DNA of 64,000 nucleotides from Aquificota bacterium (GTDB lineage Bacteria > Aquificota > Aquificia > Desulfurobacteriales > DQVG01), in contig JAMOTM010000043.1 of the NCBI GenBank assembly GCA_027002265.1, positions 14,458 to 78,457 of the forward strand. The letters are read 5' to 3'. Shown here in pieces: positions 768-45,219 of this stretch. The position numbers and the translations under genes were made by a program. The notes below the pieces were generated by a model that was not told where the DNA came from, made no database searches, and was given only the letters and a program-made list of their open reading frames with translations. The first letter of the stretch is position 1. Every line of letters begins with the position of its first letter.

Positions 768-797
768 AAATTAGAAAAGGGGGGATAAAATCCCCCC
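768..797 (-). terminator. intrinsic terminator after the 644-aa gene (GGGGGGA-TAAAA-TCCCCCC hairpin at 779-797)
   Basis: 7-bp G/C-rich stem read directly. On the minus strand it is followed by TTTTCTAATTT and lies 5 nt past the stop at 803. Confidence 0.6.
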
Positions 798-802
798 ATC
801 AA

Positions 803-2737
803 TTAAACATCTATTTCTTCCCAAGCTCTTTCTTCAGCTTTCATTAAGTCCGCAGCTTGTAAAAGTAAAAGACCAGATTCAAATAAAGAGTTTTGTCCTA
901 AGAATTTTGCTTGTTTCATAATAGTGAGTTCTTTTTCAAATTCTTCATCTGTAAGTCCAGCCTTCTTCTTAATTTCTTTCCAGTTTTCCGGCTCAATTCT
1001 TACTCTTTGCTCTTTTACATATAAAGAACCAACTTCTTTAATTGCGCGGATTATTCTAATAACGAATGGATTTACTGGGTTTGCAATTCCTTCTGGCGTA
1101 CCTGCGGTAGCTCTTTTGATAAGTTTTCCGGGTTCAGTTAAAGTTACTACTCCACAGGTTTCTAAGTTTACAATACCTTTTGCATCTAATTTTTCCAAAG
1201 CAAGGTAAACATCTTCTCTTTCTTTGTCACTAAAGTATGGTTTAATAATATCTTCCTCGATAAATGCTCCTCTTAAATAAGGAATACATTTTAAAACTCT
1301 AAGTTCAAAAGCGGTTAAGTGAGGAACTCTATTGATATGAGTTGCCATTCTTGCATAAAATCTTCCGGATGCAGTTGGAGCTCCTTGTCCGGTGGTAATA
1401 GCTTCTTCTCCTCTCATAAACCAAGAGTAATCTGGCGCTCTAAATTCAAGACGAGTTACTGTAACAGATTTTACAGCTGGGGCAGGAATCGGTCTTTCTT
1501 TAACTTGTTTTTGATCTTGAAGAACTTTTTTACCCCAGTCTGTGAAGTCATAATAAAGTTTTCCTTTTTCGTTTATATCTGTTTTAATAGCTTCTTGTGC
1601 TTCTAAAGAGTAAAGAGCAGTAGAAATATCATAATGCTTATTAAACCACTCCTCTACTTTCTTTGCTTCTTGCAATTCTTTTAAAATCTGTTGCTTTTTC
1701 TCTGGAAGCTCTTTTAATCTTCTTCCATATTTTTCTAAAAGCTTTTGAGCTTCTCTTAATTTTCTTTCAAATACAGTTTTCCAAATTTCTTCTTTAGTAG
1801 GATAAATTTCTGGATTTTCTTTATGAGTTTCCCAAATTTTTTCAATAGCTTTTAAAATTTCAATTTCAACTTCATCAAAATCTACCGTCCAAGGATCGGT
1901 TTTAACTTGTTTTGTATAAATTTTCCAAGCAAGATATAGATGTTTTCCTCCGGGTAGAAGATTTCCTTCTTCATCAATATAAGCCTGAGCTACAAGTTTT
2001 TCAAACATTTTGCTATCTATAGCATCTTTCCCTTCTTCAACTACTTTAGCTAAGTTTTCTAATATTTCTGCAGATACATTTATAGGTAAAGCTGGAGCGG
2101 ATTTTAATAAGCCTGCTCTCACTTGTTGTCCAAGTCCTGTTAAAGCATAAACATCAGATTTTGGAGCGGAGAAAGCTATAAGTCTTTGAGCTTCAAGTTC
2201 ATAAAGTTCATGTTTTCCAACATCTGCGGTTAATTTTAAAATAGATTTAAGACCTGGTCCTGGAGGCATTTCTTTAATATAATCTGTAAGTCTTTTATCT
2301 ACAGTAATATGAGGTTTTGCTTCTTGATAAGCTTGCCAAATGGTATCTGCAAGCGGAGTAAGTTGTCCGTTTTTAGCAAATCCTCTTTCTTCTAAAGCTT
2401 CAGCTACATCTTGAGGACATCTACCTTGACATTTTCTTGCAACTTCAATCATTGCAATTACTTCGGTTCCCACCCAGCGATATCCTTCTTCCCAATCTTC
2501 TATATTGATAACACCTTGTTTTTCTGCTGCCTCAATTGTTTCTGCTACAAGCATTCCACTATAAGTAAGATGATATTTGTCGTTATCTTCCAGTCTTAAA
2601 AGACCTATTAGATTAAGTTGATTTAAATACTCTAAAATTTCAGGTTCTTTTTCAGCTGCAGAAAAAAATTCATCTCCTCTTAATTTACCTTCATATATTT
2701 CCTTTAAAAGTTTTACATGCTCTTTTGTTAGTATCAT
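803..2737 (-). CDS. conserved hypothetical soluble protein, 644 aa, with repeated winged-helix-like 'LTxxG' modules
   Basis: Long uninterrupted ORF with a GGAGG RBS 5 nt upstream of the ATG. No TM segments. Recurrent motifs HLTYSGMLV, QLTPLADTI, YALTGLGQQV, DFTDWGKKV, VTLTEPGKLI. No family recognised. Confidence 0.8.
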   Translation of the reverse strand: MILTKEHVKLLKEIYEGKLRGDEFFSAAEKEPEILEYLNQLNLIGLLRLEDNDKYHLTYSGMLVAETIEAAEKQGVINIEDWEEGYRWVGTEVIAMIEVARKCQGRCPQDVAEALEERGFAKNGQLTPLADTIWQAYQEAKPHITVDKRLTDYIKEMPPGPGLKSILKLTADVGKHELYELEAQRLIAFSAPKSDVYALTGLGQQVRAGLLKSAPALPINVSAEILENLAKVVEEGKDAIDSKMFEKLVAQAYIDEEGNLLPGGKHLYLAWKIYTKQVKTDPWTVDFDEVEIEILKAIEKIWETHKENPEIYPTKEEIWKTVFERKLREAQKLLEKYGRRLKELPEKKQQILKELQEAKKVEEWFNKHYDISTALYSLEAQEAIKTDINEKGKLYYDFTDWGKKVLQDQKQVKERPIPAPAVKSVTVTRLEFRAPDYSWFMRGEEAITTGQGAPTASGRFYARMATHINRVPHLTAFELRVLKCIPYLRGAFIEEDIIKPYFSDKEREDVYLALEKLDAKGIVNLETCGVVTLTEPGKLIKRATAGTPEGIANPVNPFVIRIIRAIKEVGSLYVKEQRVRIEPENWKEIKKKAGLTDEEFEKELTIMKQAKFLGQNSLFESGLLLLQAADLMKAEERAWEEIDV

Positions 2738-2772
2738 TCATTATCCTCCTAAAAATTATTAATTGATGGGAA

Positions 2773-2781
2773 ATTATAGCA
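2773..2781 (-). promoter_or_regulatory. candidate extended -10 element (TGCTATAAT) for the 644-aa gene
   Basis: The reverse complement of 2773-2781 reads TGCTATAAT, about 35 nt upstream of the ATG at 2737. Confidence 0.3.
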
Positions 2782-2801: not shown

Positions 2802-3047
2802 TTAGGAGGAAAGTTCTTTGATTTTTTCTTCAAGATATTCAAGAGCTTCTTTGCAGCTGATTGGAAGATATACATTAGAGGATCGAATATATACAGTTTT
2901 TTCGTTTTCTTTGCAAAGTTCCTTTAAAAGTTTTATTTCTTCTTCGTATAAACGTTTTAAAAGCTCTTTATTGATTTCTCTTTTTTTCTCATCTTTTAAA
3001 CGAAACATTTCTTTTATCTCATTTATCCACTTTTCAACTATACTCAT
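2802..3047 (-). CDS. small coiled-coil protein, prefoldin beta-like hairpin region, C-terminally short (81 aa)
   Basis: AGGGGG RBS 6 nt upstream of the ATG. 'VYIRSSNVYLPISCKEALEYLEEKIKEL' resembles the beta-hairpin and start of helix 2 of archaeal prefoldin beta as I recall it. The protein ends about 17 residues into helix 2. Confidence 0.45.
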   Translation of the reverse strand: MSIVEKWINEIKEMFRLKDEKKREINKELLKRLYEEEIKLLKELCKENEKTVYIRSSNVYLPISCKEALEYLEEKIKELSS

Positions 3048-3057
3048 TTTCTGCCCC

Positions 3058-3094
3058 CTAAAATAATAATAGGGGGCACCTTTAAAGGTGCCCC
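3058..3094. terminator. palindromic hairpin GGGGCACC-TTTAAA-GGTGCCCC between the prefoldin alpha-like and 81-aa genes
   Basis: Perfect 8-bp stem at 3073-3094. T-rich on both sides. About 25 nt from the RBS of the 81-aa gene, so probably a partial terminator or stabiliser. Confidence 0.5.
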
Positions 3095-3101
3095 TTTTGT
3101 T

Positions 3102-3566
3102 TTATTTATTTTCTTCCTTTTTTTCTTCTTTTTCTAAAGTTTGAGCTTTTTCTAGTAAAGCTTCAAGAGCCATATATGTTTCTGCAATGCTTCTTTCAAT
3201 TAAAAGAGCAGCTGCTTCTAATGCAGAAATTCTTTTGTCAATGTGTTTTAAAGCTTCTTCGTAAGAAAGCTCAACAGAAAGATTTGGTCCAATAGTCATA
3301 ATAATTGTATTTGGATCTTCAATTTTAGCTTTAATAGCAGCATCTATTCCAACAGGTACCAAAATTGTTTTTCCTTCTCCAAGTTCTTTTAATTTAGCTA
3401 AAGTTACTTTGAGAAGTTTTAAATTAGAAATTTGTTGGCGAATAAGCTCAAGTTCTGCTCTTGCAGCTTCAATGCTTGCAACAAGAGCTCTCAATTGAGC
3501 TTGTAACTGAGCTAAAGTAACTACCTCTTCTTTAACTTCTTGGTTTTGTACTTTATTTTCAGCCAT
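3102..3566 (-). CDS. prefoldin alpha-class-like protein (coil / double beta-hairpin / coil), 154 aa
   Basis: GGAGG RBS 8 nt upstream. The central block 'TILVPVGIDAAIKAKIEDPNTIIMTIGPNLSVELSYEEALKHIDKRISALE' aligns closely with the archaeal PfdA hairpin region as recalled. It is flanked by heptad-like helices. Confidence 0.7.
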   Translation of the reverse strand: MAENKVQNQEVKEEVVTLAQLQAQLRALVASIEAARAELELIRQQISNLKLLKVTLAKLKELGEGKTILVPVGIDAAIKAKIEDPNTIIMTIGPNLSVELSYEEALKHIDKRISALEAAALLIERSIAETYMALEALLEKAQTLEKEEKKEENK

Positions 3567-3769
3567 TTTTATAACCTCCTTTTAGTTCTTATTTATCATT
3601 TTCTTTATCTATTAATAAATATAGGCTTTTTTAAATAATTTTCAAGATATTATTAAAAAATATAAAATAAATTTTTAAATTTCTAAAAGATCAGGATAGT
3701 CAGTAAATAAAATAATTTAAATTAGAAAAAAGGGAAAAAGGTAATTAAAAGAAATATAAAAATACCTCA

Positions 3770-4741
3770 TTAAAATAGCTTTTTAATCATTTCCTCAAAT
3801 TTATGAAGTGTAAAGTTTTTTTGGGAAAAAATATTTTCCCAATTTACCTGATAGTATTTTGAAGGGGGCAGGGGATACTTTTTTTCTCCTGGAGTCATGT
3901 TGTATTTTAAAAAAATTTTTTGAACTTTCTCAGATAGTATAAATTTAAGAAACTTTAAAGATAATTTTGGATCATTTGTTGATTTAAAAATAAAAATAGG
4001 ACTTGGTATATATATATTTTCTTTTGGATAAATGAAAGATATATTATAGTTTTTCGCAAAATAATCTATAAGAATTCCAATATCCACTTTATTTTTCTTT
4101 AAAGCTTTAGCTAATTCTAAGTTATTTTTAAAAATGTAAACATGATTATTTTTAAGCATTTTTCTTAATGAGCTTTCACCTATAAAATTTAAAGCATAAT
4201 AAAAAAGTCCTAAAGCAAATCCGGAATAGTGTGGATCTACGATTCCCATTTTTAAATTTTTATATTTTAAAAATTCAGAATACGAAGAAATTTTTGCTTT
4301 TTTGAAATTTTTTGAGTAAGCTATAACTGGGATCAAAATTCTGGCGGAAACAAAATAATTATCTTTATCTACATAATAATATTTTTTAGGATCATCTACT
4401 TTAAACCTTAAAAGTAAATTTAATTTTTTTAATGAGATAACATTTATAGGGTCTGCAAGTAATCCTACGTCAAGCTTTATGTTTCCATTTAAAATATTTT
4501 TTACTATTTGCTTTCTTAAATAGGAAGAAGAGGATCTTTTTATTACAACTTCAAGGTCTGGATTTTCTTTTTCGAATTCTTTACAAATCTCTTTGGCAAC
4601 ATTTAGGGGTAAAGATGTATAAAAATATAAAGTCTTTTTTTCGAAAATTAAAAAGTTATTCTTCAATATAAGATTAAGAGCTATAAAAAAACTTATTAAA
4701 ATTAATAAAAAGATACTTATTATTTTTCTTGAGCTAACCAT
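3770..4741 (-). CDS. periplasmic solute-binding protein (ABC-type, family-1-like), signal-anchored
   Basis: N-terminal hydrophobic anchor, ~320 aa, alternating alpha/beta pattern with 'LYFYTSLP...' typical of SBP N-lobes. Substrate unknown. Confidence 0.5.
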   Translation of the reverse strand: MVSSRKIISIFLLILISFFIALNLILKNNFLIFEKKTLYFYTSLPLNVAKEICKEFEKENPDLEVVIKRSSSSYLRKQIVKNILNGNIKLDVGLLADPINVISLKKLNLLLRFKVDDPKKYYYVDKDNYFVSARILIPVIAYSKNFKKAKISSYSEFLKYKNLKMGIVDPHYSGFALGLFYYALNFIGESSLRKMLKNNHVYIFKNNLELAKALKKNKVDIGILIDYFAKNYNISFIYPKENIYIPSPIFIFKSTNDPKLSLKFLKFILSEKVQKIFLKYNMTPGEKKYPLPPSKYYQVNWENIFSQKNFTLHKFEEMIKKLF

Positions 4742-4743
4742 GT

Positions 4744-5505
4744 TTAAATGCCGAGGACATCAAACATGTTGTATAAACCTTGTTTTTTTTCTTTTAAAAA
4801 TTTTGCAGCATATAAAGCACCTTTTGCAAAAGGTTTTCTAGAATTAGCTTTGTGAGTAAGTTCTATTCTTTCGTCTTCTCCGAAAAAATATACAGTATGC
4901 TCTCCAGCTACATTACCGCCTCTTAAGGCCATAACTCCAACTTCATTTTTCTTTCTTTCACCTATTACTCCATCTCTGCAGGAAACTCGGTTTAAAGAAT
5001 TTCCAAAAACTTTATTTATAATCTCAAAAAGTCTAGTAGCTGTACCTGAAGGTGCATCTTTTTTATATTTATGATGAATTTCCATAATTTCGATATCAAA
5101 ATCTTTATCCTTTAAAAGTTTTGTTGCAATTTCAGTTAGTTTAAAAAGAAGATTAACGCCTAAGGACATATTTGGAGAGTAACAAATAGCCGTATTTTTA
5201 GATAACTTTTCCATTTTTTCAAGGATACTTTTATCCAAAGCAGTGGTTCCTATTACAGCTTTTTTAGAAGTGTTCTTTTCTAAATAGTTTAAAACTTCTT
5301 TTGTTCCTTCGGGTAAAGAAAAGTCTATAATAATATCAAAATCTTCTTTTATATCATATAAAGATTTATATATTGGAATATTTTCTAAAGTTCCTTCTTT
5401 TCTATCTACCCCGGCAACAACTTTTATATCTTCGAAACTTTTAGAAAGTTCGTATATAGTTTTTCCCATTCTTCCTAAAATTCCGAAAATAACAATTTTA
5501 ACCAT
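4744..5505 (-). CDS. dapB: 4-hydroxy-tetrahydrodipicolinate reductase
   Basis: N-terminal Rossmann 'IVIFGILGRMGK' and signature 'EIMEIHHKYKKDAPSGTA'. Confidence 0.9.
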   Translation of the reverse strand: MVKIVIFGILGRMGKTIYELSKSFEDIKVVAGVDRKEGTLENIPIYKSLYDIKEDFDIIIDFSLPEGTKEVLNYLEKNTSKKAVIGTTALDKSILEKMEKLSKNTAICYSPNMSLGVNLLFKLTEIATKLLKDKDFDIEIMEIHHKYKKDAPSGTATRLFEIINKVFGNSLNRVSCRDGVIGERKKNEVGVMALRGGNVAGEHTVYFFGEDERIELTHKANSRKPFAKGALYAAKFLKEKKQGLYNMFDVLGI

Positions 5506-5507
5506 GT

Positions 5508-6497
5508 TTAGTTAACCCCCAAAATATGATGAATATGAATAATACCAACCACCCTTTTATTTTCATCTACAACTGGCAAAACTGTAATTTTATAGTTTTC
5601 CATTTTATCTAAAGCTTCTTTTATGGAATCTAAATAAAAAATAGTTTTTGGATTTTTAGTCATAGCATCTTTAGCAGTAGAGCTATATATATCTTTTTTC
5701 TTTTCTAAAAATCTTCTTAAATCTCCATCTGTAATAATTCCCCTTAAATTTTCACTTTTATCAAAAACTAGAGCGCAACCAAGTTTTTTTTGAGACATCT
5801 CTTTTATTACTTCTATCATAGATGTGTCTAAATATACCTTTGGAATAGCTTTACCTTCTTTCATAAGATCCTTTACTTTTAAAAGCTTTAAACCTAAGGA
5901 TCCCGAAGGATGGAAAATATGAAAATTTTCCTTTTTAAAATTTTTCAATTTAGATATAGTAACTGCCAAAGCATCTCCAAAGGCTAAAGTTACTGTACTT
6001 GAAGTAGTAGGAGCTAAACCCAAATGACAAGCTTCACTCTCTACGAAAGTATATAGATTAATATCTGAAAGTTTTGAAAGAGAATTTCCAGGTTTAGAGG
6101 TTATTGATACTACCTTTTTTGCGATTTTTTTTACTATAGGTAAAATAAAAAGAAGCTCTTTTGTCTCTCCACTATGAGAAATAGATACAAAAATATCTTT
6201 CTTTTGTAAAACTCCCAAGTCCCCGTGAGCGGCTTCGGTAGGATGTAGAAATATGCTTGGTATTCCTAAAGAAGAAAAAGTGGAAGCAAGTTTTCTTCCT
6301 ATAATTCCCGACTTTCCTACTCCGGAAAAAACAAGTTTTCCTTCTAAAGTCAAAGTTTCTTTTATAAATTTTAAAATATTTTCTTCTTGTCTTTCTAAAT
6401 TATCTTTCAAATTTAATATACCTTTTACCTCGTTTTCTAAAACTTCCTTAATATTTTGCAAAGTGTCTTTTAAATTATTTTCCTTCACTTGAAACAT
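5508..6497 (-). CDS. kdsD: arabinose-5-phosphate isomerase (KpsF/GutQ family; SIS + tandem CBS)
   Basis: SIS motif 'GVGKSGIIGRKLASTFSSLG', 'SHSGET', and a C-terminal CBS pair. Confidence 0.85.
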   Translation of the reverse strand: MFQVKENNLKDTLQNIKEVLENEVKGILNLKDNLERQEENILKFIKETLTLEGKLVFSGVGKSGIIGRKLASTFSSLGIPSIFLHPTEAAHGDLGVLQKKDIFVSISHSGETKELLFILPIVKKIAKKVVSITSKPGNSLSKLSDINLYTFVESEACHLGLAPTTSSTVTLAFGDALAVTISKLKNFKKENFHIFHPSGSLGLKLLKVKDLMKEGKAIPKVYLDTSMIEVIKEMSQKKLGCALVFDKSENLRGIITDGDLRRFLEKKKDIYSSTAKDAMTKNPKTIFYLDSIKEALDKMENYKITVLPVVDENKRVVGIIHIHHILGVN

Positions 6498-7554
6498 CCT
6501 CTTTCTTATCTTGAGCTATATTTTCTCTTTTATCATCTTCCACAAATTCCTTAAATTTTCCAAAAACAATTCTACCTGCGGAGGTTTGCAAAATATTTGT
6601 TACTTCTATTTTAACTTTTTTCCCAATTTTATCTCCAGCATTGTCCACTATTACCATAGTTCCATCATTTAGATATCCAATAGCTTGATTTTTATCTTTT
6701 CCTCTTTTCACTAAAGAAATTATTAGATCTTCTCCAACAACAAAATTTGGTTTTAAAGCATTTATTAAATCATTTAAATTTAAAGTTTCTATCCCTTTTA
6801 TCTGAGCAAGTTGAATAAGATTATAGTCCATAGTTAAAAGCTTAGCATCAAATTTTCTTGCAAGTTCTAAAAGTTTTTCATCCGTTTTTCTTAAATAAGG
6901 TATATCTCTTTCATATATATCTACCAAAAGAGCTTTTTTTTCATTTGACAGTTTTAAAAGCTCTTTTACAGCTTCTAAACCTCGTCTTCCTTTGTTTCGA
7001 ATAACTGGATCATGGGTATCTGCTATAAATTGTAGTTCTTCTAAAACAAAACGAGGAATTATAAATTTCCCTTCTAAAAATCCGGTTTTCAAAACATCTA
7101 CAATTCTATAGTCTATTAAAGTTGAAGTATCTATAACCTTTGTAGGAATGCATTCTTCTTTATCCTCTCTAAAAAGAGATGAAAAGCTTCTTTTTTTCAA
7201 ACTTTCGACAAATAAAATACCAAATAAAATGGGAAATATACCAAATGTTAAAGCATTTACAAAAAATAGCTCTTCTTGGATAGGAAAGAATAAAATATTT
7301 ATTATTACATATATTAAATAAGCAAATAAAACTCCTAAGGAAAATCCAAAGATAAAATGAATAAAGTCTTTTATAAATATTTTTTTAGAAAAAATAAAGT
7401 AGTAAAGCAAAAATGCAGCTGTCGTAGAAAAAGTAGATATTAAAAAAGCTTGTAAATAATCAAATCCATAACTTACAAGTCCCAAAAAGGACAACCAAAA
7501 TATTAAAATAAATGCTGGATTTATAATTCTTGGTTTAATAAATCTTATTTTCAT
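6475..7554 (-). CDS. membrane-anchored PIN + TRAM domain protein (YacL-like)
   Basis: Four N-terminal TM helices, then a PIN-like 'VIDTSTLIDYRI...', then a C-terminal TRAM-like beta domain. Confidence 0.75.
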   Translation of the reverse strand: MKIRFIKPRIINPAFILIFWLSFLGLVSYGFDYLQAFLISTFSTTAAFLLYYFIFSKKIFIKDFIHFIFGFSLGVLFAYLIYVIINILFFPIQEELFFVNALTFGIFPILFGILFVESLKKRSFSSLFREDKEECIPTKVIDTSTLIDYRIVDVLKTGFLEGKFIIPRFVLEELQFIADTHDPVIRNKGRRGLEAVKELLKLSNEKKALLVDIYERDIPYLRKTDEKLLELARKFDAKLLTMDYNLIQLAQIKGIETLNLNDLINALKPNFVVGEDLIISLVKRGKDKNQAIGYLNDGTMVIVDNAGDKIGKKVKIEVTNILQTSAGRIVFGKFKEFVEDDKRENIAQDKKEDVSSEGK

Positions 7555-7599
7555 TTTTTTCTCCTAAAAAATAAAATATCACTTTCTAATACATCAAAT

Positions 7600-8196
7600 C
7601 TACTCTGCGGGGTATCCCACAGGCATAATATAAAGAGGATGTTCTTTTATATCTAAAATTATCTTAATAAGCTCATCTATAAAGGCTCCAATAGCTACTG
7701 TTCCAAGCTTTAAATATGTAGCCATTAGATATATATTTTGGGAAATATGTCCTGCTTCCATTAAAACATACCTAATTCCTCGTTTTCCATATTTTGACAT
7801 AGTTATTCCAAAGTTTGCTGTAATTATAAAGTTTAAAGGAGCATCCATAATAAAATCTTGATTTAATGCAGCTTGAACTAGCTCTGGCAAAATATTTTTT
7901 GAAAATAAAAATTTTAAACTATGGTTTTCAGGCATATATAAAAAAAGGGCATTTTCTAAATCTTTATACCTTTTTAAAAATAAATAAATTCTCATAGGAT
8001 ATAAAGCTCCGGCTGAAGGTACAGTTTTGTATCCAAAGGGGTTTCTAAGTCCATAAGCCGCAAAGCAGAGCTTTGAAATTTCGTTTTCACTTAATGGATT
8101 TGAAAGATAGCTTCTAATTGAACGTCTTTTAAATAATAGCTCTTCAAAGGAAAAAGAAAGCTTTTCTATTTCAATTTCCGGAAGTTTAAAAATCAT
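7600..8196 (-). CDS. SagB-type / nitroreductase-family dehydrogenase
   Basis: 'RRSIRSY' nitroreductase N-motif and the 'PSAGALYP' SagB-type hallmark. Confidence 0.7.
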   Translation of the reverse strand: MIFKLPEIEIEKLSFSFEELLFKRRSIRSYLSNPLSENEISKLCFAAYGLRNPFGYKTVPSAGALYPMRIYLFLKRYKDLENALFLYMPENHSLKFLFSKNILPELVQAALNQDFIMDAPLNFIITANFGITMSKYGKRGIRYVLMEAGHISQNIYLMATYLKLGTVAIGAFIDELIKIILDIKEHPLYIMPVGYPAE

Positions 8197-9011
8197 AATT
8201 TATCCTTTATTAGTTTTTTTGAAAATTTTTTCTCATTATATAAATTTAGGTCATCATTACTCGCAAGGGAATCGGTTCCAAGGAAAATTGGAATGTTGTA
8301 TTTTTTAAAAAGATCAAAAGGGGGTTTTCCTACATTTAGATAGTAATTGCTTCTTGGACATAAAATAACTTTTGCTCCTGTCTTTTTAATTAAATAAGCT
8401 TCTTTTTCCGTAATATGAACACAGTGGACTAAATACGTTTTTGGAGATAAAACCCCAAGTTCATATAAATATTCAATAGGCCTTTTTTCTGGAGGAGTAA
8501 AGTTTCCAAGAACTCCTATATTTTTAAAAAGTTCGTACATAGAATTTTTCTTCCCTAAAAGAAAATCAACTTCCTCTTTACTTTCGGCGGCATGAATTTT
8601 GAATATAGGAGTATTTTTGTAAATAAGCTTTATATATTTTGGATTCACGCTATAGGGAGCATGAGCTGAAAGATAAAAATTATATTTTTTTGCTATTTTT
8701 ATATACTTTTCAAATCTTAATTTTGCAATATTTTCATCTAATCCAATAAATTCAAAAAAATTTTTTATATTGGGTCTTTTTAAAATTTTTAAAATTTTCT
8801 CATTCTCGGTAAAGGTTTGTATATTCCAAAAGTAATAATCTTTGTATTCCTTTAAAATTTTTTTTATAGATAAAATTCTTAGCTCATCTTTTACCAAAAA
8901 TTTAAAAGAAATTATTTTTTTCAACCAAGATACAAAGTCTTTTTCACGAGGTCTATTTAAATATTTAAAGTAAGAAAATTCAAGATGGGTATGGTAGTTA
9001 ATAGGTTTCAT
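8193..9011 (-). CDS. metal-dependent amidohydrolase-family protein (short form)
   Basis: 'YHTHLE' HxH metal motif, later His residues and 'GTDSLASN' aspartate motif. 4-nt overlap with the downstream gene. Confidence 0.6.
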   Translation of the reverse strand: MKPINYHTHLEFSYFKYLNRPREKDFVSWLKKIISFKFLVKDELRILSIKKILKEYKDYYFWNIQTFTENEKILKILKRPNIKNFFEFIGLDENIAKLRFEKYIKIAKKYNFYLSAHAPYSVNPKYIKLIYKNTPIFKIHAAESKEEVDFLLGKKNSMYELFKNIGVLGNFTPPEKRPIEYLYELGVLSPKTYLVHCVHITEKEAYLIKKTGAKVILCPRSNYYLNVGKPPFDLFKKYNIPIFLGTDSLASNDDLNLYNEKKFSKKLIKDKL

Positions 9012-9014
9012 CTT

Positions 9015-9380
9015 TTACCTCTTTTCAAATAATTTAAGGATTTTAGCAAGCTTATTAAGATCCTTTTTATCTAAGCTAATAACGATTTTATTATACCTTT
9101 CATTTGTAAGCTCAAAAACCGCTATATCTTTATTTGGATACATGCACCAAAATTCTTTTTTATTATTTTTTACAGAGAAAAAAATTCCTATTATGAGTAA
9201 ATTAAATATACGTACGCCTGATGCTTTAAATAATGGATATTTTAACTTAGATGGATTTAAAATAATGTTTTTGATATTTTTGATGGGAAATTCTATTGGT
9301 TTAAAGTTTAAAGATAGAATCTTTTCAAGTTTACTTAATTTTATTTGAATTTTGTCCTTTTTTATATCTAACTTTGCCAT
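9015..9380 (-). CDS. hypothetical protein, 121 aa
   Basis: ORF at the head of a same-strand gene run. No recognisable motifs. Confidence 0.45.
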   Translation of the reverse strand: MAKLDIKKDKIQIKLSKLEKILSLNFKPIEFPIKNIKNIILNPSKLKYPLFKASGVRIFNLLIIGIFFSVKNNKKEFWCMYPNKDIAVFELTNERYNKIVISLDKKDLNKLAKILKLFEKR

Positions 9381-9450
9381 TTTATATTTTAATCTTTAGA
9401 AACACTTCAATGTTAAAATATTTTACAAAAATTTTTTGGAGGTATTAAAC

Positions 9451-10815
9451 TTGAAAGTGGAAAAAAGTAAAAAACTTTTTGAAGAAGCCAAAAAATATAT
9501 TCCAGGTGGGGTAAATTCTCCAGTTAGAGCTTTTAAAGCTGTTGAGGATATTCCGCGTTTTATTGAAAAAGGGGAAGGTGCATATATTTACGATGTGGAT
9601 GGAAACAAATATATTGATTATGTAATGTCCTGGGGACCTTTAATTTTAGGTCATGCTCCTAAAAAAGTTATTAAAGCTGTTGTTGAGCAGGCAAAAAAGG
9701 GAACTTCTTATGGGGCTCCAACTAAGCTCGAGGTAGAAATTGCAAAATTTATATGTGAGCATGTTCCGGGAGTAGAAAAAGTTAGAATGGTAAACTCCGG
9801 AACAGAAGCTACTATGAGTGCAATTCGTCTGGCAAGAGGGTATACTGGAAGAAAAAAAATTATAAAATTTGAAGGATGTTACCATGGGCATGTAGATTCC
9901 CTACTTGTAAAAGCAGGGTCTGGACTAGCAACTTTTGGAAAACCATCCTCTCCAGGTATCCCCGAAGAGCTTGCAGCTCTTACTATTACTTTACCATTTA
10001 ATGACATAAATACCTTTAAAAAAGCTATTTTGGAACATAAAGGAGAAATTGCCTGTGTTATTTTAGAACCCGTTATGGCAAATGCAGGGCTAATTATGCC
10101 CACAAAAGAATTTTTAAAAGGGCTTAGGGAAATTACTGCTCAAGAAAATATTATTCTTATCTTTGATGAAGTTATTACTGGATTTAGACTTTCTTTAGGT
10201 GGAGCTCAAGAGTATTTTGGAATTACTCCCGACCTTTCTACCTTTGGAAAAGTTATAGGGGGAGGTCTGCCGGTAGGGGCTTTTGGAGGGAAAAAAGAAA
10301 TTATGGATTATTTATCTCCAGAGGGTCCTGTATATCAAGCTGGAACTTTATCCGGAAATCCTCTTGCTATGGCGGCTGGTCTTACAACTTTAAAGCTTTT
10401 AAAAGATGGTAAAGTTCAAAAACTTCAAGATGGAAGTACTATAGTTGACTTTTTTAAGGATGGAGAAGGAGTTTATGATTATTTAAGAAAAATGGGAAAA
10501 GCTTTTGCAGAAGCTATAGATGCTGCTAGAAGAGAAACTGGTATGGATAAATATACAAGGGCTTATAACTTAGAAAGCTTAAATTGTCTTTTCTTTGTAG
10601 ATAAAGATATTAAAAACTTTAAAGATGTTTCCAAAGCTAATACTAAAGCTTATGCTCTCTTTTTCAGAGAAATGTTAAAAGAAGGAATCTATTTAGCACC
10701 CTCTCAATTTGAAGTAGCCTTTGTATCTACAGCTCATACAGAAAAGGAAATAGAAAGAACTTATCAAGCTGCCCTTAAAGCTTTAAGAAGAGTTAAGGAG
10801 GAATTTTATAGTTAA
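9451..10815 (+). CDS. hemL: glutamate-1-semialdehyde 2,1-aminomutase
   Basis: 'IPGGVNSPVRAF' and a class-III aminotransferase core with 'FGKVIGGGLPVGAFGG'. GGAGG at 9438-9442 favours the TTG at 9451 over the track start at 9436. Confidence 0.9.
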   Translation: MKVEKSKKLFEEAKKYIPGGVNSPVRAFKAVEDIPRFIEKGEGAYIYDVDGNKYIDYVMSWGPLILGHAPKKVIKAVVEQAKKGTSYGAPTKLEVEIAKFICEHVPGVEKVRMVNSGTEATMSAIRLARGYTGRKKIIKFEGCYHGHVDSLLVKAGSGLATFGKPSSPGIPEELAALTITLPFNDINTFKKAILEHKGEIACVILEPVMANAGLIMPTKEFLKGLREITAQENIILIFDEVITGFRLSLGGAQEYFGITPDLSTFGKVIGGGLPVGAFGGKKEIMDYLSPEGPVYQAGTLSGNPLAMAAGLTTLKLLKDGKVQKLQDGSTIVDFFKDGEGVYDYLRKMGKAFAEAIDAARRETGMDKYTRAYNLESLNCLFFVDKDIKNFKDVSKANTKAYALFFREMLKEGIYLAPSQFEVAFVSTAHTEKEIERTYQAALKALRRVKEEFYS

Positions 10816-40531: not shown

Positions 40532-41626
40532 TTATAATTTATTTTTATATTTTGGATAGGTTAAATCTTTATAAGGGGAATTATGAATAATATGACATTT
40601 TAAGCAATTTTTTTTGTCTTTTAAGTTTTTATGACTGCCCCACAAAATCGGTTTATGACAATAAATACAAATTTCAGGAGCTTTTGCATATAGCATATTT
40701 TTTTTGTTTAAGTGGGGATTATGACAAATAGTACAATCCATAGGGTGAGTATATTTATTTTTAGCAAATACTCCCACATCTTTTGCCTTTCTTCCATTAT
40801 GACAAACAAGACAAGTTTTTGCATGCTTAGAATAATGTAGATTTTTCTTTGGAATATAAATATTAGGACTGTATTTAATTAAAAATTCACTTTTTGCAAA
40901 GTGGGGTGTATGACAATTTTCACAGGATTTGTGAGGAGTTTTTAAAACTTCTTTTTCTTCTTTATGACATTTAGAGCAAAATAAACCATAAGTTTTTGTT
41001 GGAATTAAAGACTTACTTAAAGCTCTATGCATTTTGTGACAATTTAAACATCCAATATCTGGATGAGAATTTTTATCTTTTTTTATATCTATATGACATT
41101 TATAACAATGTTTAGATTTATTTCTTTTAAAAGAAAGACAATTTTTATCTTTTGGTCTGTGCATATCATGACAGTTTAAACAATTAATCTTCATTTTTTT
41201 CTTTCTTAAATTCAATTTTCCAACAGGATGGTTAAAAAGTATAAGATTTTTTGAAAAATATTTTCTTTTATATTTTTCTTTATGACAAGAAGCACATGTA
41301 TTTTCTTTTACTTTAAAAGCAAATTTCTTTTTAGAACCTTCTTTGGTATGAGGATTATGGCAATTTCCACAGTTTACTTTATTATTTATGGGATGTCCTA
41401 TCTTATGATATATATTATAAAAAATATCCCTATCATCTAAAATTAGACCATTGTGACAAGAGTAGCACATTTCTAAACTAGATGCAGATACATTTTCTCC
41501 TACTAAAATATAAGGCAACTTACTTTTCTCTTTAGATATAAAATTTTTTACATGACATTTATAGCAATCTTGCGCTAAGGAAAAAGATAATAATATAAAT
41601 GTTAAAAATATAAATTTTCCCAACAT
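40532..41626 (-). CDS. periplasmic multiheme c-type cytochrome, 13 CxxCH motifs in 364 aa
   Basis: Signal peptide. Counted CYKCH, CYSCH, CGNCH, CASCH, CLNCH, CYKCH, CLNCH, CSKCH, CENCH, CLVCH, CTICH, CIYCH, CLKCH, many as CxxCHxxH. The ATG shares its A with the upstream TAA stop. Confidence 0.85.
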   Translation of the reverse strand: MLGKFIFLTFILLSFSLAQDCYKCHVKNFISKEKSKLPYILVGENVSASSLEMCYSCHNGLILDDRDIFYNIYHKIGHPINNKVNCGNCHNPHTKEGSKKKFAFKVKENTCASCHKEKYKRKYFSKNLILFNHPVGKLNLRKKKMKINCLNCHDMHRPKDKNCLSFKRNKSKHCYKCHIDIKKDKNSHPDIGCLNCHKMHRALSKSLIPTKTYGLFCSKCHKEEKEVLKTPHKSCENCHTPHFAKSEFLIKYSPNIYIPKKNLHYSKHAKTCLVCHNGRKAKDVGVFAKNKYTHPMDCTICHNPHLNKKNMLYAKAPEICIYCHKPILWGSHKNLKDKKNCLKCHIIHNSPYKDLTYPKYKNKL

Positions 41627-42390
41627 TATCTTTCTACCTCATTCTTTTTTCTTATTACAAGGGTAGGTTTTAAAGAATCTAAAACATAAATATTATTCTT
41701 ATCTACTTTTAAGCCCAAGGGATTTTTTATATTTGAAAAATAACCCACATAAGAACCTGCTTTTGTAAAAACAACAACTTTTTTAAAAATGGGATCTGCA
41801 ACATATATGTAATTTTTATCAACATCTATGCCTGTAGGTCTAAAAAGTTTACCTTTTGTAATTCCAAAATCTCCAAAAAAGTAAGTTAATTTTCCATTAA
41901 AATCGATTAAATAGATTTTTGCATTATTTACATCTACAAGATATATATAACTATTATCTTTTGTTAAAAAACCTAATTTGGAATTAAAATTAATAGATTT
42001 TCTCTCTTTTCCATCTAGAGAGTATGCTTTTAAGTATCCATTTTTTAAGCTTGTCCAAATAAGATTTTTCACCTTAACAAGGTCTATAGGAGAAGCTTTT
42101 AGATTTATGACTCTTTCTATTTTTCCCTTTAGATTTAATATATATATTTTTTTATCTTTTGGAGAAGTAAGGTAAATCTTGTTGTCTTCTACATATATTC
42201 CATAAGGTTTAAATTTTAATTTAATTTTATTTTTAGGTTTTAAAGTATTTTTATTTAAAACTAAAATTTCCTGCTTTAATCCATCTACTATATATATACT
42301 ATTTTTATATATAGAAAGATCTGAAGGCGTTTTTAAATTAAGATTTACAGTTTCTCCCAAGGCAAATAAACCTAGTAAAAATATAAGCAT
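41626..42390 (-). CDS. NHL-repeat beta-propeller protein (secreted)
   Basis: Short signal peptide. About six repeats of the 'P.GI.VD.NYIYV.D...KI.V(F/L)' type, e.g. 'FRPTGIDVDKNYIYVADPIFKKVVVF'. Confidence 0.75.
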   Translation of the reverse strand: MLIFLLGLFALGETVNLNLKTPSDLSIYKNSIYIVDGLKQEILVLNKNTLKPKNKIKLKFKPYGIYVEDNKIYLTSPKDKKIYILNLKGKIERVINLKASPIDLVKVKNLIWTSLKNGYLKAYSLDGKERKSINFNSKLGFLTKDNSYIYLVDVNNAKIYLIDFNGKLTYFFGDFGITKGKLFRPTGIDVDKNYIYVADPIFKKVVVFTKAGSYVGYFSNIKNPLGLKVDKNNIYVLDSLKPTLVIRKKNEVER

Positions 42391-42400
42391 TTATGCCCCC

Positions 42401-43144
42401 TTATTTTATAAACTCTGGAAAGTAAATTTTTTTTCCTTTTATAAGAGCTTTTATAATTACGTCTTTTCCTTTGATTTCCTCTATACGCTCTTTACTAAAT
42501 CCAAGAGCTTTTAGATCTAAAGGTGGTTTTGGAGATAAATGACAATCTTTACAAGAGTAAATACCTTCTTTTACAACATATCCATGAAGCTTAGATGTAA
42601 AAAGAGGATCTTTTTTATCTATTTTATCTTTTACAAGCTTATAAGGAATATCTAAAGGTTTCCCGTTAACTAAAGGTCCTATCCTTGCATCATCAAACTC
42701 GCCAGATAGAACAATTTCATTTCCGTATTTAATATAAGTAGTTCCATATCTATCTGGTCCTCCAGAAACGGGATAAATTTTTTTTCCCTTTATTTTTATC
42801 CAAGAGTATGAGGAGGCTCCAATTTTTACATGACAGACTGTACATGTTAAAAAACCAGCATGCATATTTAAAAAAGCAGCATATTTTCCTTTTTTATGAG
42901 GATAAGCAGTATGGCATTTTGTGCAGACATCTCCATAAAAAACTTTGTTATAGGTATTTTCTATATGAAAAGGTAGAGGATATTTATTTTTATTTATTTT
43001 TGGAGTTTTAAACTTTTTTAATTTTTCCTTCCAAGTTTTAATGTTTCCTTGAAAATCGCTATTTTTTATATACTCTAAAAGAACTTGGGAAAAGGCTAAA
43101 TTAGAAACTATATAAAAAGCAAAAATATATTTTAATTTTGACAT
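42401..43144 (-). CDS. triheme c-type cytochrome (3 CxxCH), signal-anchored
   Basis: CTKCH, CTVCH and CKDCH counted. N-terminal hydrophobic segment. 13-nt overlap with the upstream gene. Confidence 0.75.
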   Translation of the reverse strand: MSKLKYIFAFYIVSNLAFSQVLLEYIKNSDFQGNIKTWKEKLKKFKTPKINKNKYPLPFHIENTYNKVFYGDVCTKCHTAYPHKKGKYAAFLNMHAGFLTCTVCHVKIGASSYSWIKIKGKKIYPVSGGPDRYGTTYIKYGNEIVLSGEFDDARIGPLVNGKPLDIPYKLVKDKIDKKDPLFTSKLHGYVVKEGIYSCKDCHLSPKPPLDLKALGFSKERIEEIKGKDVIIKALIKGKKIYFPEFIK

Positions 43145-44097
43145 TCTACTTCCCTCCTTCTTTCATAAAGCTCTTTGTTTATTTGTCTTTCTATTTCGTG
43201 GGCTTTATGAATGATTTTTAAAATTTGCTCTTCCACGGGTAGTTTCTCTATAGATTTAATAAATTCATATCTTTCTTTTAAAAAGGGATATTTTTCTAAA
43301 AATTCTGGGCATTCTTCTCCTAATTTTTTTATAATTTTTCTATAAAGTCTTGGTTTTTCTTCCATAAGCTCTACTTCATTGAAAGTTCCAGTAAGCCATA
43401 CCCAGTCCATAGGAAATTTTGAAGGTCCAAAATGAGCAAAATATAAATGAACTAATCCCAACCAACCTAAAGCTACAAAAGCTTCATCTGTGTGAGCAAG
43501 ATAAGCTACAGAAATCGCCCAATTGGGAAAATGAAGGTAATGAGTAAAAAATTCCGGAAACCATAAAATGAAACCGGTAACTCCAATAGCAAACATACCC
43601 CAACCAACTGCAAAAAAATCAAATTTATCTATCCATATAAATTCATCAAAATCAGGTGGTGCTTTTCTAATCCCAAGGTAGTAAGTTACCTGGTGGTAAA
43701 TATCTATAGCATCCTTTAATCTTGGAAGCATAGGAAGTGCATCAAATACCCCAATTTTTTTTATTCTATCTGTATTAAGAATGATTAAAAGGGTGCAGTA
43801 AAATACTGTAACTAGAAAAGTAAGAAACATAATAAGCCCGTATACTCTGTGAATAGTCATTGCTCCAAAAGTTCCACCCATAAGATAGTAAAGAGGTTTA
43901 GCCCAGGAAGCATCCGAATACTTTAAAGGAAAACCCGTTAAAATTTGATAAGCTACAGTAACAAATATAAATACATGCAATATTCTATGGAAGATGTTAA
44001 ATTTTCTATAAGCCAAATACTTCCCATCTACAATTAAAGTTTTTTCAACTTCATCTTTAAGCCTTAAATTTTCTTTTAATTTAGATAAAATTCCCAT
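43132..44097 (-). CDS. integral membrane di-heme cytochrome b-like subunit (FdnI / Ni-Fe-hydrogenase cytochrome b type) with ~90-aa cytoplasmic helical tail
   Basis: Four TM helices carry conserved His residues ('FHRILHV', 'IHRVYG', 'AHTDEA', 'HLYFAH'), as in PF01292-type quinone-interacting b subunits. Confidence 0.7.
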   Translation of the reverse strand: MGILSKLKENLRLKDEVEKTLIVDGKYLAYRKFNIFHRILHVFIFVTVAYQILTGFPLKYSDASWAKPLYYLMGGTFGAMTIHRVYGLIMFLTFLVTVFYCTLLIILNTDRIKKIGVFDALPMLPRLKDAIDIYHQVTYYLGIRKAPPDFDEFIWIDKFDFFAVGWGMFAIGVTGFILWFPEFFTHYLHFPNWAISVAYLAHTDEAFVALGWLGLVHLYFAHFGPSKFPMDWVWLTGTFNEVELMEEKPRLYRKIIKKLGEECPEFLEKYPFLKERYEFIKSIEKLPVEEQILKIIHKAHEIERQINKELYERRREVECQN

Positions 44098-44109
44098 TTA
44101 TAAAACCTC

Positions 44110-45219
44110 CTAATCCTCCTTATCCTTCTTTCTATTTCTTATTTCCCTAAATAAAGATAAAAATACAATTCCAGCTCCCATTAGAAGAACAGATGCTGCC
44201 ATGTAAAACATTCCATGTTCTACTCCAAAAACTATAGCTTGAACTACAGGATTTTCATATTTAAATACAGCTGGATCCATATGAACCCATTTAGTTGTTG
44301 CAAAATTTTTATCATTCCATTTAGCTACGAGGGGATGACATTCATCGCTTCTTCCACAAGTTTTAGGCAAAACATTTGGATTAGTAGAAGAACGTTCATC
44401 TATAGTTTCAAAAATATCGTGAAAGTTACCATTTGCATGGGTATGACAGTCTAAACAATCTGCAGCTCTTTTATCTTTAGGATAGAGTTTAAGCATTTTT
44501 CCATGCATAGTATTAAGATAAGCTTTTACAGCTTCAAGAATTTTTTCTTTTCTTTCTTCATCTTTTATTTGCATAACATTTATTGCTTTTTCCATTTTCC
44601 TTTTATCTGCGTGACAAGAAGCACAAAGTTTTACGATTTCCCATCCATTTCTTTGTATACCAGCTTTATAACCAAAGGCAAAACCATTTTTTTCAATAGG
44701 AATTTCACTTCTAGAAAGAACATGGGCATATGCAATTTTTAGATCGTAATTATTGGTGTGGCATATAGAACATTTAGCTAAAGATTTTTTTGCACTATTT
44801 AATTTTTCTAAATCTATAAGCTCTTTGTTTATATGGCAGTAAGAACAAGAAGGAAAAATGTCTGGAGCTTTATCGTAGTATTTTCCGTGGACCGACTCTT
44901 TCCAAGTTTTTACAATATTTTCATGCGAAAAAAACTTTTTAGATATAGGATCTATAACATGGCATTTTGAAGAGCAAGTTGCTTTTACGTTTTTAGGGTC
45001 GTGAGGATAAGCTTTTATTTTTGTATGACATTCTGAGCAATCCGCGTCCCTATGAACGGAATGTAAAAATTTTATGGAAGATATATCACAGAGAATAATA
45101 GTGTTGTTTTGAATGTAACCTAAATTTCTATACTTATGGCACATTAAACATCCATCTTTTGCTAAACTGAAAGATATAGCTAGTTCAAAAACAAAAAGGC
45201 TTTTTATAAAACTCTTCAC
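44110..45219 (-). CDS. multiheme c-type cytochrome with C-terminal TM anchor (6 CxxCH plus CSSKCH and CGRSDECH variants)
   Basis: Signal peptide. CLMCH, CSECH, CSYCH, CSICH, CASCH, CLDCH counted. C-terminal 'MFYMAASVLLMGAGIVFLSLF' helix. Confidence 0.8.
   Translation of the reverse strand: MKSFIKSLFVFELAISFSLAKDGCLMCHKYRNLGYIQNNTIILCDISSIKFLHSVHRDADCSECHTKIKAYPHDPKNVKATCSSKCHVIDPISKKFFSHENIVKTWKESVHGKYYDKAPDIFPSCSYCHINKELIDLEKLNSAKKSLAKCSICHTNNYDLKIAYAHVLSRSEIPIEKNGFAFGYKAGIQRNGWEIVKLCASCHADKRKMEKAINVMQIKDEERKEKILEAVKAYLNTMHGKMLKLYPKDKRAADCLDCHTHANGNFHDIFETIDERSSTNPNVLPKTCGRSDECHPLVAKWNDKNFATTKWVHMDPAVFKYENPVVQAIVFGVEHGMFYMAASVLLMGAGIVFLSLFREIRNRKKDKED

Follow-up and report, generated by a model that had tools for sequence, protein, structure and literature searches.

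What is the 644-amino-acid (aa) protein that is encoded directly downstream of a prefoldin-like gene pair in a 64,000-nucleotide (nt) stretch of DNA from an Aquificota bacterium (the whole stretch is called the window below), and what might it do in the cell? The original prediction, made from the sequence alone, could not place this protein in any family. That statement did not hold up, as the protein matched Pfam DUF505 (PF04458) with an expectation value (E) of 1.4e-198 and a score of 661.6 bits against a gathering cut-off of 28.7, residues 1–628 covering positions 1–621 of the 622 in the profile. Homologues are 587–661 aa long, align over 97–100% of the query, contain PF04458 as their single domain and are labelled 'DUF505 domain-containing protein' by NCBI. 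A family alignment of 29 sequences, reaching down to 36% identity, contained 30 invariant columns (including T58, G61, R118, G119, E182, R185, S190, T399, G402, T534 and G537), and all of these residues are present in the window protein. In length, single-domain architecture and invariant residues it is the same as Pfam DUF505, with no structural difference; relative to other members it carries an optional basic helical insertion of 45 residues (322–366), which is missing in about half of the aligned sequences. The window protein is an ordinary, cytoplasmic, full-length member of an already catalogued family. A confident match to a known family was thus found, and that family is one without a known function. 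What is new from this window is one more DUF505 member and an architectural description, without a function.

With regard to the second half of the question, we favor, at a probability of roughly 40%, the reading that DUF505 is a scaffold of multiple winged helices and not an enzyme, and that it may have to do with heat-related protein quality control. No function-bearing description of DUF505, PF04458 or COG1542 was found in the literature searched by whole-word matching, papers on Aquifex prefoldin or on winged helices in tandem were not informative either, no enzyme family was matched in Pfam or NCBIfam scans of the 644-aa protein, and a single-sequence search of the PDB returned no match. 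NCBIfam, PADLOC and PHROG yielded nothing meaningful (best E of 0.0087 in PADLOC and of 0.0023 in PHROG, the latter to a family of unknown function), and no DUF505 relatives were found among 2.9 million viral contigs. Based on these PADLOC, PHROG and viral-contig results, an anti-phage defence protein or a phage protein was rejected as a candidate. A metal site at the CQGRC sequence (residues 105–109) was likewise rejected, since the motif is not conserved and most members lack cysteine altogether.

The gene and its flanking signals were located as follows.

803..2737, minus strand: DUF505 coding sequence, stop codon included (open reading frame (ORF) listing; 644 aa; ATG start)
2745..2750, minus strand: ribosome-binding site AGGAGG, 7 nt upstream of the ATG (read from the sequence)
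2773..2781, minus strand: TGCTATAAT, a candidate promoter element of the extended -10 type, 35 nt before the DUF505 ATG (read from the sequence, consensus match only)
779..797, minus strand: intrinsic-terminator-like hairpin GGGGGGATTTTATCCCCCC, then TTTTCT, just 3' of the stop codon (8 base pairs in the terminator scan, including 6 G-C)

The start codon of the 644-aa ORF is correct, as evidenced by the N-terminal sequence MILTKEH, which lines up with the N-terminus of all homologues in the 29-sequence alignment. Comparison with the 91%-identical orthologue at locus L001 gave 1.14 synonymous substitutions per site (dS) and 0.061 nonsynonymous substitutions per site (dN), a dN/dS ratio of 0.053; the ORF is a real gene, on which purifying selection acts strongly. 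The candidate extended -10 element and the G6/C6 terminator named in the original prediction are both present, at 2781..2773 and 797..779, respectively. No good -35 element was found with TGCTATAAT upstream of the gene, nor was an operator-like palindrome. The composition had also been singled out as unlike that of the K/I/N-rich neighbors, and this was borne out: K+I+N makes up 0.20 of the 644-aa protein versus 0.23–0.34 in the neighbors, and A+E+G+L+V makes up 0.43. The G+C content (GC) of the gene is 33.7%, versus 28.5% in the whole window, and at third codon positions (GC3) it is 15.7%, which is the level of the neighboring genes. Because GC3 is native, recent horizontal transfer was rejected as the cause of the raised GC, which instead comes from amino-acid composition or constraint.

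The architecture was derived from an AlphaFold2 model built on the 29-sequence alignment, which has a mean predicted local distance difference test (pLDDT) score of 91.9 and a predicted template-modelling score (pTM) of 0.90. The model displayed the following features: (i) a helix, short strand, helix, helix and beta-hairpin unit, which is the winged-helix topology, recurs about nine times in its secondary structure; (ii) by the DSSP string of the predicted model, the pattern H1-S1-H2-H3-S2-wing-S3 is seen in modules 2–7, and modules 1, 8 and 9 are abbreviated variants; and (iii) each hairpin is followed by a helix that at the same time opens the module after it. When residues 1–262 were modelled separately (pLDDT 88.7), the winged-helix pattern was reproduced. 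The whole chain is predicted with high confidence, on these models, to be a single rigid body in which about nine highly diverged PadR/MarR-like winged-helix modules are arranged head to tail.

The original prediction had listed five 'LTxxG' wing-type motifs along the protein. All five are present and conserved, and they sit exactly at module junctions, where a wing ends and the initial helix of the following module begins; three further junctions (LPGG, PTASG and FESG) bring the set, characterized by a conserved [T/P]xxG motif, to eight: LTYSG at 57, LTPLA at 126, LTGLG at 199, LPGG at 261, FTDWG at 398, PTASG at 454, LTEPG at 533 and FESG at 618. At five junctions the Thr is kept in 26–29 of the 29 aligned sequences and the Gly in all 29. 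Of the five motifs first listed, four have an invariant Thr and Gly; at the QLTPLA site the last position is Ala or Gly across the alignment. The protein has four copies of the pattern [LF]TxxG, whereas 5000 shuffles gave an expectation of 0.25. Three regions of the chain stand out.

2105..2215, minus strand: residues 175–211, the most conserved stretch of the family (highest sliding-window conservation; invariant E182, R185, S190, P192 and G203)
1640..1774, minus strand: residues 322–366, a Lys/Glu-rich helical hairpin (predicted helices 315–343 and 346–357; net charge +4)
1517..1690, minus strand: residues 350–407, matched by Pfam PadR at a sub-threshold E of 0.0046 (350–366 overlaps the variable insertion)

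Residues 175–211, with the consensus LEAQRLIAFSxPxSDVYxLTGLGQQIR, comprise H3 and the wing of module 3 together with the junction into module 4. The Lys/Glu-rich central region, which had been noticed from the sequence, is a lineage-variable insertion inside module 5 that is carried by about half of the 29 aligned sequences, and it is predicted to form a helical hairpin. Within the PadR match, module 5 has its PadR-like recognition helix and its wing at residues 367–407, a stretch that also takes in the FTDWG junction to module 6. The family profile significantly matched the PadR-family regulator in PDB entry 5dym_A (E 4.9e-4, module 5 only) and weakly matched MexR over module 7. Sub-threshold hits to PadR, HTH_45, wHTH-PRTase_assc, HVO_A0261_N and DUF4364 were obtained in 9–14 of the 29 members, PadR being hit in 14.

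When the model was compared with PDB and BFVD using Foldseek, no global match to the whole chain was obtained (best E in PDB of 0.015, at a template-modelling (TM) score of about 0.1). The local matches with an appreciable TM-score or probability were essentially all to winged-helix proteins, namely RPC62/RPC82, UFL1-DDRGK1, DtxR/IdeR/MntR, MosR and MukE/F. Those of residues 1–262, none of them significant, were to IdeR, BpuJ1, N.BspD6I, STK19, ScpB, Stn1, PadR and RovA. The best single-domain TM-scores were 0.84, at a root-mean-square deviation of 2.1 Å, to a 66-aa viral winged helix-turn-helix (wHTH) protein, and 0.55 to APE_0880a; every E-value was at least 0.015. Overall, the proposal of repeated winged-helix-like modules in the original prediction is supported by the AlphaFold pattern, the local Foldseek matches, the PadR profile match and the sub-threshold wHTH hits.

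Charge was also compared across these modules. Members of the family have isoelectric points of 4.9–7.0, and the family-mean charge is negative or neutral in every module except module 8 (+4.7). The putative recognition helix, H3, is net negative family-wide in eight of the nine modules; in module 8 the family means are +0.9 for H3 and +2.2 for the wing.

992..1135, minus strand: module 8, residues 535–582, the only basic module (conserved K541, K567, K575, R578 and R580)

Acidic recognition helices in eight of nine modules argue against an array of DNA-reading heads and favor a scaffold. Judging from the sequences, we infer that such a scaffold would bind a nucleic acid, or a different anionic ligand, at no more than one site.

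A family profile search recovered 136 clusters among 1.84 billion representative proteins, including 78 with an E-value no higher than 1e-30. A pattern scan in which each species was represented by one genome gave 51 loci, in which the named isolates are thermophiles and the metagenome-assembled genomes (MAGs) come from hydrothermal vents according to their sample names. Carriers belong to Aquificota, Thermodesulfobacteriota (including Thermodesulfobacterium hydrogeniphilum), Thermotogaceae, WOR-3, Deferribacteres, vent Bacteroidota, Chlorobiota and Campylobacterota, and more distant DUF505 clusters were found in Methanopyrus, Korarchaeota and Hydrogenimonas. In the window itself, the summed fraction of Ile, Val, Tyr, Trp, Arg, Glu and Leu in the proteome is 0.429, a value that implies optimal growth at about 67 °C, and public MAGs with proteins at least 90% identical to its DUF505 carry the labels Desulfurobacteriaceae or Aquificota. 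DUF505 is rare and found in thermophilic bacteria and archaea, mostly from hydrothermal vents, and it appears to be restricted to thermophiles.

Gene context was compared in about 63 distinct places, and 522 neighboring ORFs were clustered. Proteostasis neighbors (SDH protease, prefoldin or DnaK) occur in 12 of these places, and a KaiC-like ATPase in five, overlapping those, in WOR-3, Aquificota and Methanopyrus loci. Among the 142 ORFs within two genes of DUF505, the recurrent Pfam families were the SDH protease PF01972 (seven loci), radical SAM (five) and the KaiC-like ATPase (three). The order in WOR-3 is KaiC-like ATPase, a 207-aa HTH/DUF2795 protein, DUF505, SDH protease (PF01972) and ThiI-like/NFACT-R_2, and the gene for the membrane ClpP-like SDH protease starts in overlap with the DUF505 stop or directly beside it (by 1 nt in five loci). 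This WOR-3 cluster lies in the MAG loci L037–L039, at about 4500–9500 in L038 and L039. At the Aquificota locus L031, the SDH protease and the KaiC-like ATPase stand on either side of DUF505. On a high-GC bacterial contig (L066, 3–2204) DUF505 begins 21 nt after the end of dnaK (DnaK match to 6w6e_I, E 2.1e-5), and the ORF after it overlaps the DUF505 stop by 4 nt. Some neighbors are related to DNA instead. In two archaea a DNA-repair gene directly precedes DUF505 on the same strand: Nre, at a distance of 35 nt, in Methanopyrus (L055, 6817–9821), where a KaiC/RadA-like ATPase is also encoded close by, and the Hef helicase-nuclease, at a distance of 64 nt, at the archaeal locus L060 (5534–9722). 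At L032, one of the approximately 63 places, a ScpA-like gene lies 147 nt upstream. In the remaining archaeal loci the genes beside DUF505 are unrelated.

The prefoldin-like genes of the window had figured prominently in the original prediction, and their position upstream of DUF505 on the same strand was as described.

3102..3566, minus strand: prefoldin alpha gene, 154 aa (PF02996, E 2.4e-20; TIGR00293, E 1.7e-21, above cut-off)
2802..3047, minus strand: 81-aa ORF, lineage-restricted and truncated prefoldin-beta-like, immediately upstream of DUF505 (Pfam Prefoldin, E 0.064)
3073..3094, both strands: hairpin GGGGCACCTTTAAAGGTGCCCC, terminator-like in both directions, separating prefoldin alpha from the 81-aa ORF (terminator scan; 9–11 pairs)

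Prefoldin is usually regarded as an archaeal and eukaryotic chaperone. Here a clear prefoldin alpha gene is found in a bacterial genome, with its own strong bidirectional terminator hairpin 3' of it. The 81-aa ORF has the look of a prefoldin beta that was truncated: a single long helix, a hairpin of the form VY...VY..IS..EA and a short helix at the C-terminus. Its family amounts to three clusters in 5.8 billion proteins, all of this lineage; the ORF is kept at L001 at 65% identity, is called as a gene in public assemblies and shows a weak likeness, in the same register, to a 98-aa counterpart in Aquificota (BLASTP E 0.054). Prefoldin alpha and a small beta-like ORF precede DUF505 in four of the approximately 63 places, namely the window, L001, L018 and L022. 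The last two, at 2840–9788 and 2826–7962, respectively, of Aquifex-like MAGs, share the run pfdA, c4, c5, UPF0128 (PF03673), c47, 98-aa beta-like ORF, DUF505, pgi and truA, which is co-directional and operon-like with overlaps of 4–8 nt; c4 and c5 encode small membrane proteins. The 240-aa protein encoded between UPF0128 and the 98-aa ORF has an N-terminus, PFLPGSVLKEAFKDAL, that appears RAMP-motif-like by eye, and it gave no Pfam hit. Sister Aquificota show the order c4-c5-DUF505 without prefoldin, and the prefoldin pair is absent beside DUF505 in the 73%-identical Thermodesulfatator relatives, in T. hydrogeniphilum, in Desulfurobacterium atlanticum and in all archaeal loci examined. Of the link proposed between the two, what stands is the pair upstream in the window, L001 and the two Aquifex-like genomes; it does not extend beyond those four places, and the strong terminator at 3094..3073 separates the pair in the window. 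Conservation of this synteny is correspondingly shallow and is not kept across related genomes. The adjacency in the window would be one lineage-specific instance and not a family-wide partnership, and the link to prefoldin is a weakly supported one.

Elsewhere in the window, at 40532..45219 on the minus strand, several adjacent ORFs with signal-like N-termini and CxxCH-type motifs (for example, DCYKCH and GCLMCH) suggest a multihaem cytochrome cluster.

The last wing strand of each module is predicted to run directly into the first helix of the next, and in the reading that we favor the approximately nine fused modules would form a binding scaffold. Its preference over a classical DNA-binding regulator stems from the eight of nine putative recognition helices that are acidic family-wide. 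The putative basic helix-and-wing surface of module 8 (residues 535–582) could hold one nucleic-acid or other anionic partner, and the acidic modules might dock protein partners. In the most speculative step, DUF505 may act as an adaptor in heat-related protein quality control, a role suggested by its few recurrent neighbors: the translationally coupled SDH protease, prefoldin alpha with its beta-like ORF, DnaK and the KaiC-like ATPase. A fuller version, in which DUF505 would be a thermophile-specific, hitherto unrecognized class of rigid nine-winged-helix adaptor that couples chaperones or proteases (prefoldin, DnaK, SDH protease, KaiC-like ATPase) to a nucleic-acid or anionic partner via the basic module, is in our estimation improbable.

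Several observations weigh against this reading. Regarding the architecture, hhalign comparison of all 36 module pairs detected no internal repeat homology (best probability 13.6%), hence the repeat nature rests on the predicted structure; similarly, with all Foldseek E-values above 0.01, the winged-helix assignment of each module rests on the predicted topology and weak local matches. Regarding the role in quality control, no family-wide partner gene was found by neighbor clustering and a Pfam scan, the 142 ORFs within two genes of DUF505 match 142 different Pfam families, and at most loci DUF505 stands alone among unrelated housekeeping genes. The SDH protease link is largely confined to one phylum, WOR-3. 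DnaK, Hef and Nre were each rejected as conserved neighbors, being single cases whose sister clusters lack them. Two sequence signals of the window, a terminator and an element resembling a promoter, lie between prefoldin alpha and DUF505, and no CIRCE heat-shock operator was found within the 64 kilobases.

The main rival to the scaffold reading is a thermophile genome- or RNA-maintenance factor, in which module 8, and perhaps others, would bind DNA or structured RNA and then recruit or organize proteins of repair, replication or the chromosome, in the manner of the multi-winged-helix proteins STK19, RPC62 or ScpB/MukE. Winged helices bind nucleic acids as their primary function, the PadR- and MarR-like sequence signals agree with such a function, and module 8 offers a conserved basic helix and wing; moreover, the placement of Nre and a KaiC/RadA-like ATPase in Methanopyrus, of Hef in another archaeon and of the ScpA-like gene at L032 could be read in its favor, together with local fold matches to STK19, ScpB, Stn1, MukE/F and the DNA-recognition domains of BpuJ1 and N.BspD6I. 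However, the protein is acidic overall, as are eight of its nine putative recognition helices, each of the DNA-related adjacencies is single and is not kept in the sister clusters examined, and all of the fold matches are non-significant, and we consider this factor possible, if rather doubtful. Identity with an SMC kite protein (ScpB/MukE) was rejected, the ScpA-like neighbor occurring in one of about 63 places and the ScpB and MukE fold matches being non-significant.

The same winged-helix signals could alternatively denote a sequence-specific transcription factor of the PadR/MarR type that was expanded by domain duplication, considering that module 5 matches PadR, that module 7 weakly matches MexR and that the LTxxG motif presumably resembles the junction between the wing and the following helix in the PadR family. 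We regard this as highly improbable: DUF505 has nine modules in 644 aa, as opposed to one wHTH in 100–180 aa for PadR and MarR, its recognition helices are acidic even in the PadR-like module 5 (family-mean H3 charge of -1.0), and neither an upstream operator-like palindrome nor a conserved regulated partner gene nearby was found. Least credible to us is the idea, which goes back to the original prediction, that DUF505 serves the prefoldin encoded upstream as its dedicated client or as an obligate partner. Its appeal comes from the gene order alpha, beta-like and DUF505, common to the window, L001 and two Aquifex-like genomes whose DUF505 is about 40% identical to that of the window, and from the beta-like gene that overlaps the DUF505 start by 4 nt in the Aquifex-like genomes. 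Yet this arrangement is limited to those four of about 63 places; the pair is missing in the 73%-identical relatives, in Desulfurobacterium, in other Aquificota and in all archaeal loci examined, and archaea generally encode prefoldin. The 81-aa ORF family is confined to the lineage of the window, where a terminator and a separate promoter-like element intervene between the genes, and joint horizontal transfer of archaeal-type genes could account for the adjacency.

Single modules of DUF505 share the H1-S1-H2-H3-wing topology of PadR and MarR regulators, and at the profile level module 5 shares the PadR signature ALYxLE...YxLTxxG. Those regulators, however, are dimers of 100–180 aa with one wHTH and a basic recognition helix, whereas DUF505 consists of nine fused modules with mostly acidic helices, and all Pfam PadR and MarR scores of its members are below the gathering thresholds; DUF505 is not a member of the PadR or MarR families. 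With RPC82/RPC62 of RNA polymerase III, UFL1-DDRGK1, STK19 and the ScpB/MukE kite proteins it shares the possession of several tandem winged-helix domains, and these proteins are mainly protein-protein or protein-nucleic-acid scaffolds. They also gave the best Foldseek matches, yet non-significant ones, at TM-scores of about 0.1–0.2 and E-values of at least 0.015. Unlike DUF505, with its approximately nine modules, they contain 2–6 winged-helix domains, show no detectable sequence relationship to it and are eukaryotic or universal instead of thermophile-restricted. By analogy, we infer that DUF505 probably works most like these multi-winged-helix scaffolds (RPC62/RPC82, UFL1, STK19 and kite), without membership in any of them.

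Reverse gyrase is the classic protein family that is confined to thermophiles across both prokaryotic domains, and to our knowledge only few families are of this kind. DUF505 is large, strongly conserved and confidently modelled, with a thermophile-type distribution and without a global structural relative in the PDB. If the coupling-adaptor version were true, DUF505 would be dedicated to the quality control of macromolecules at high temperature and horizontally shared among vent bacteria and archaea. A defined role for it, in proteostasis as an adaptor or in genome maintenance as a scaffold, would add to the understanding of life at high temperature and would explain the archaeal-type prefoldin in some thermophilic bacteria.

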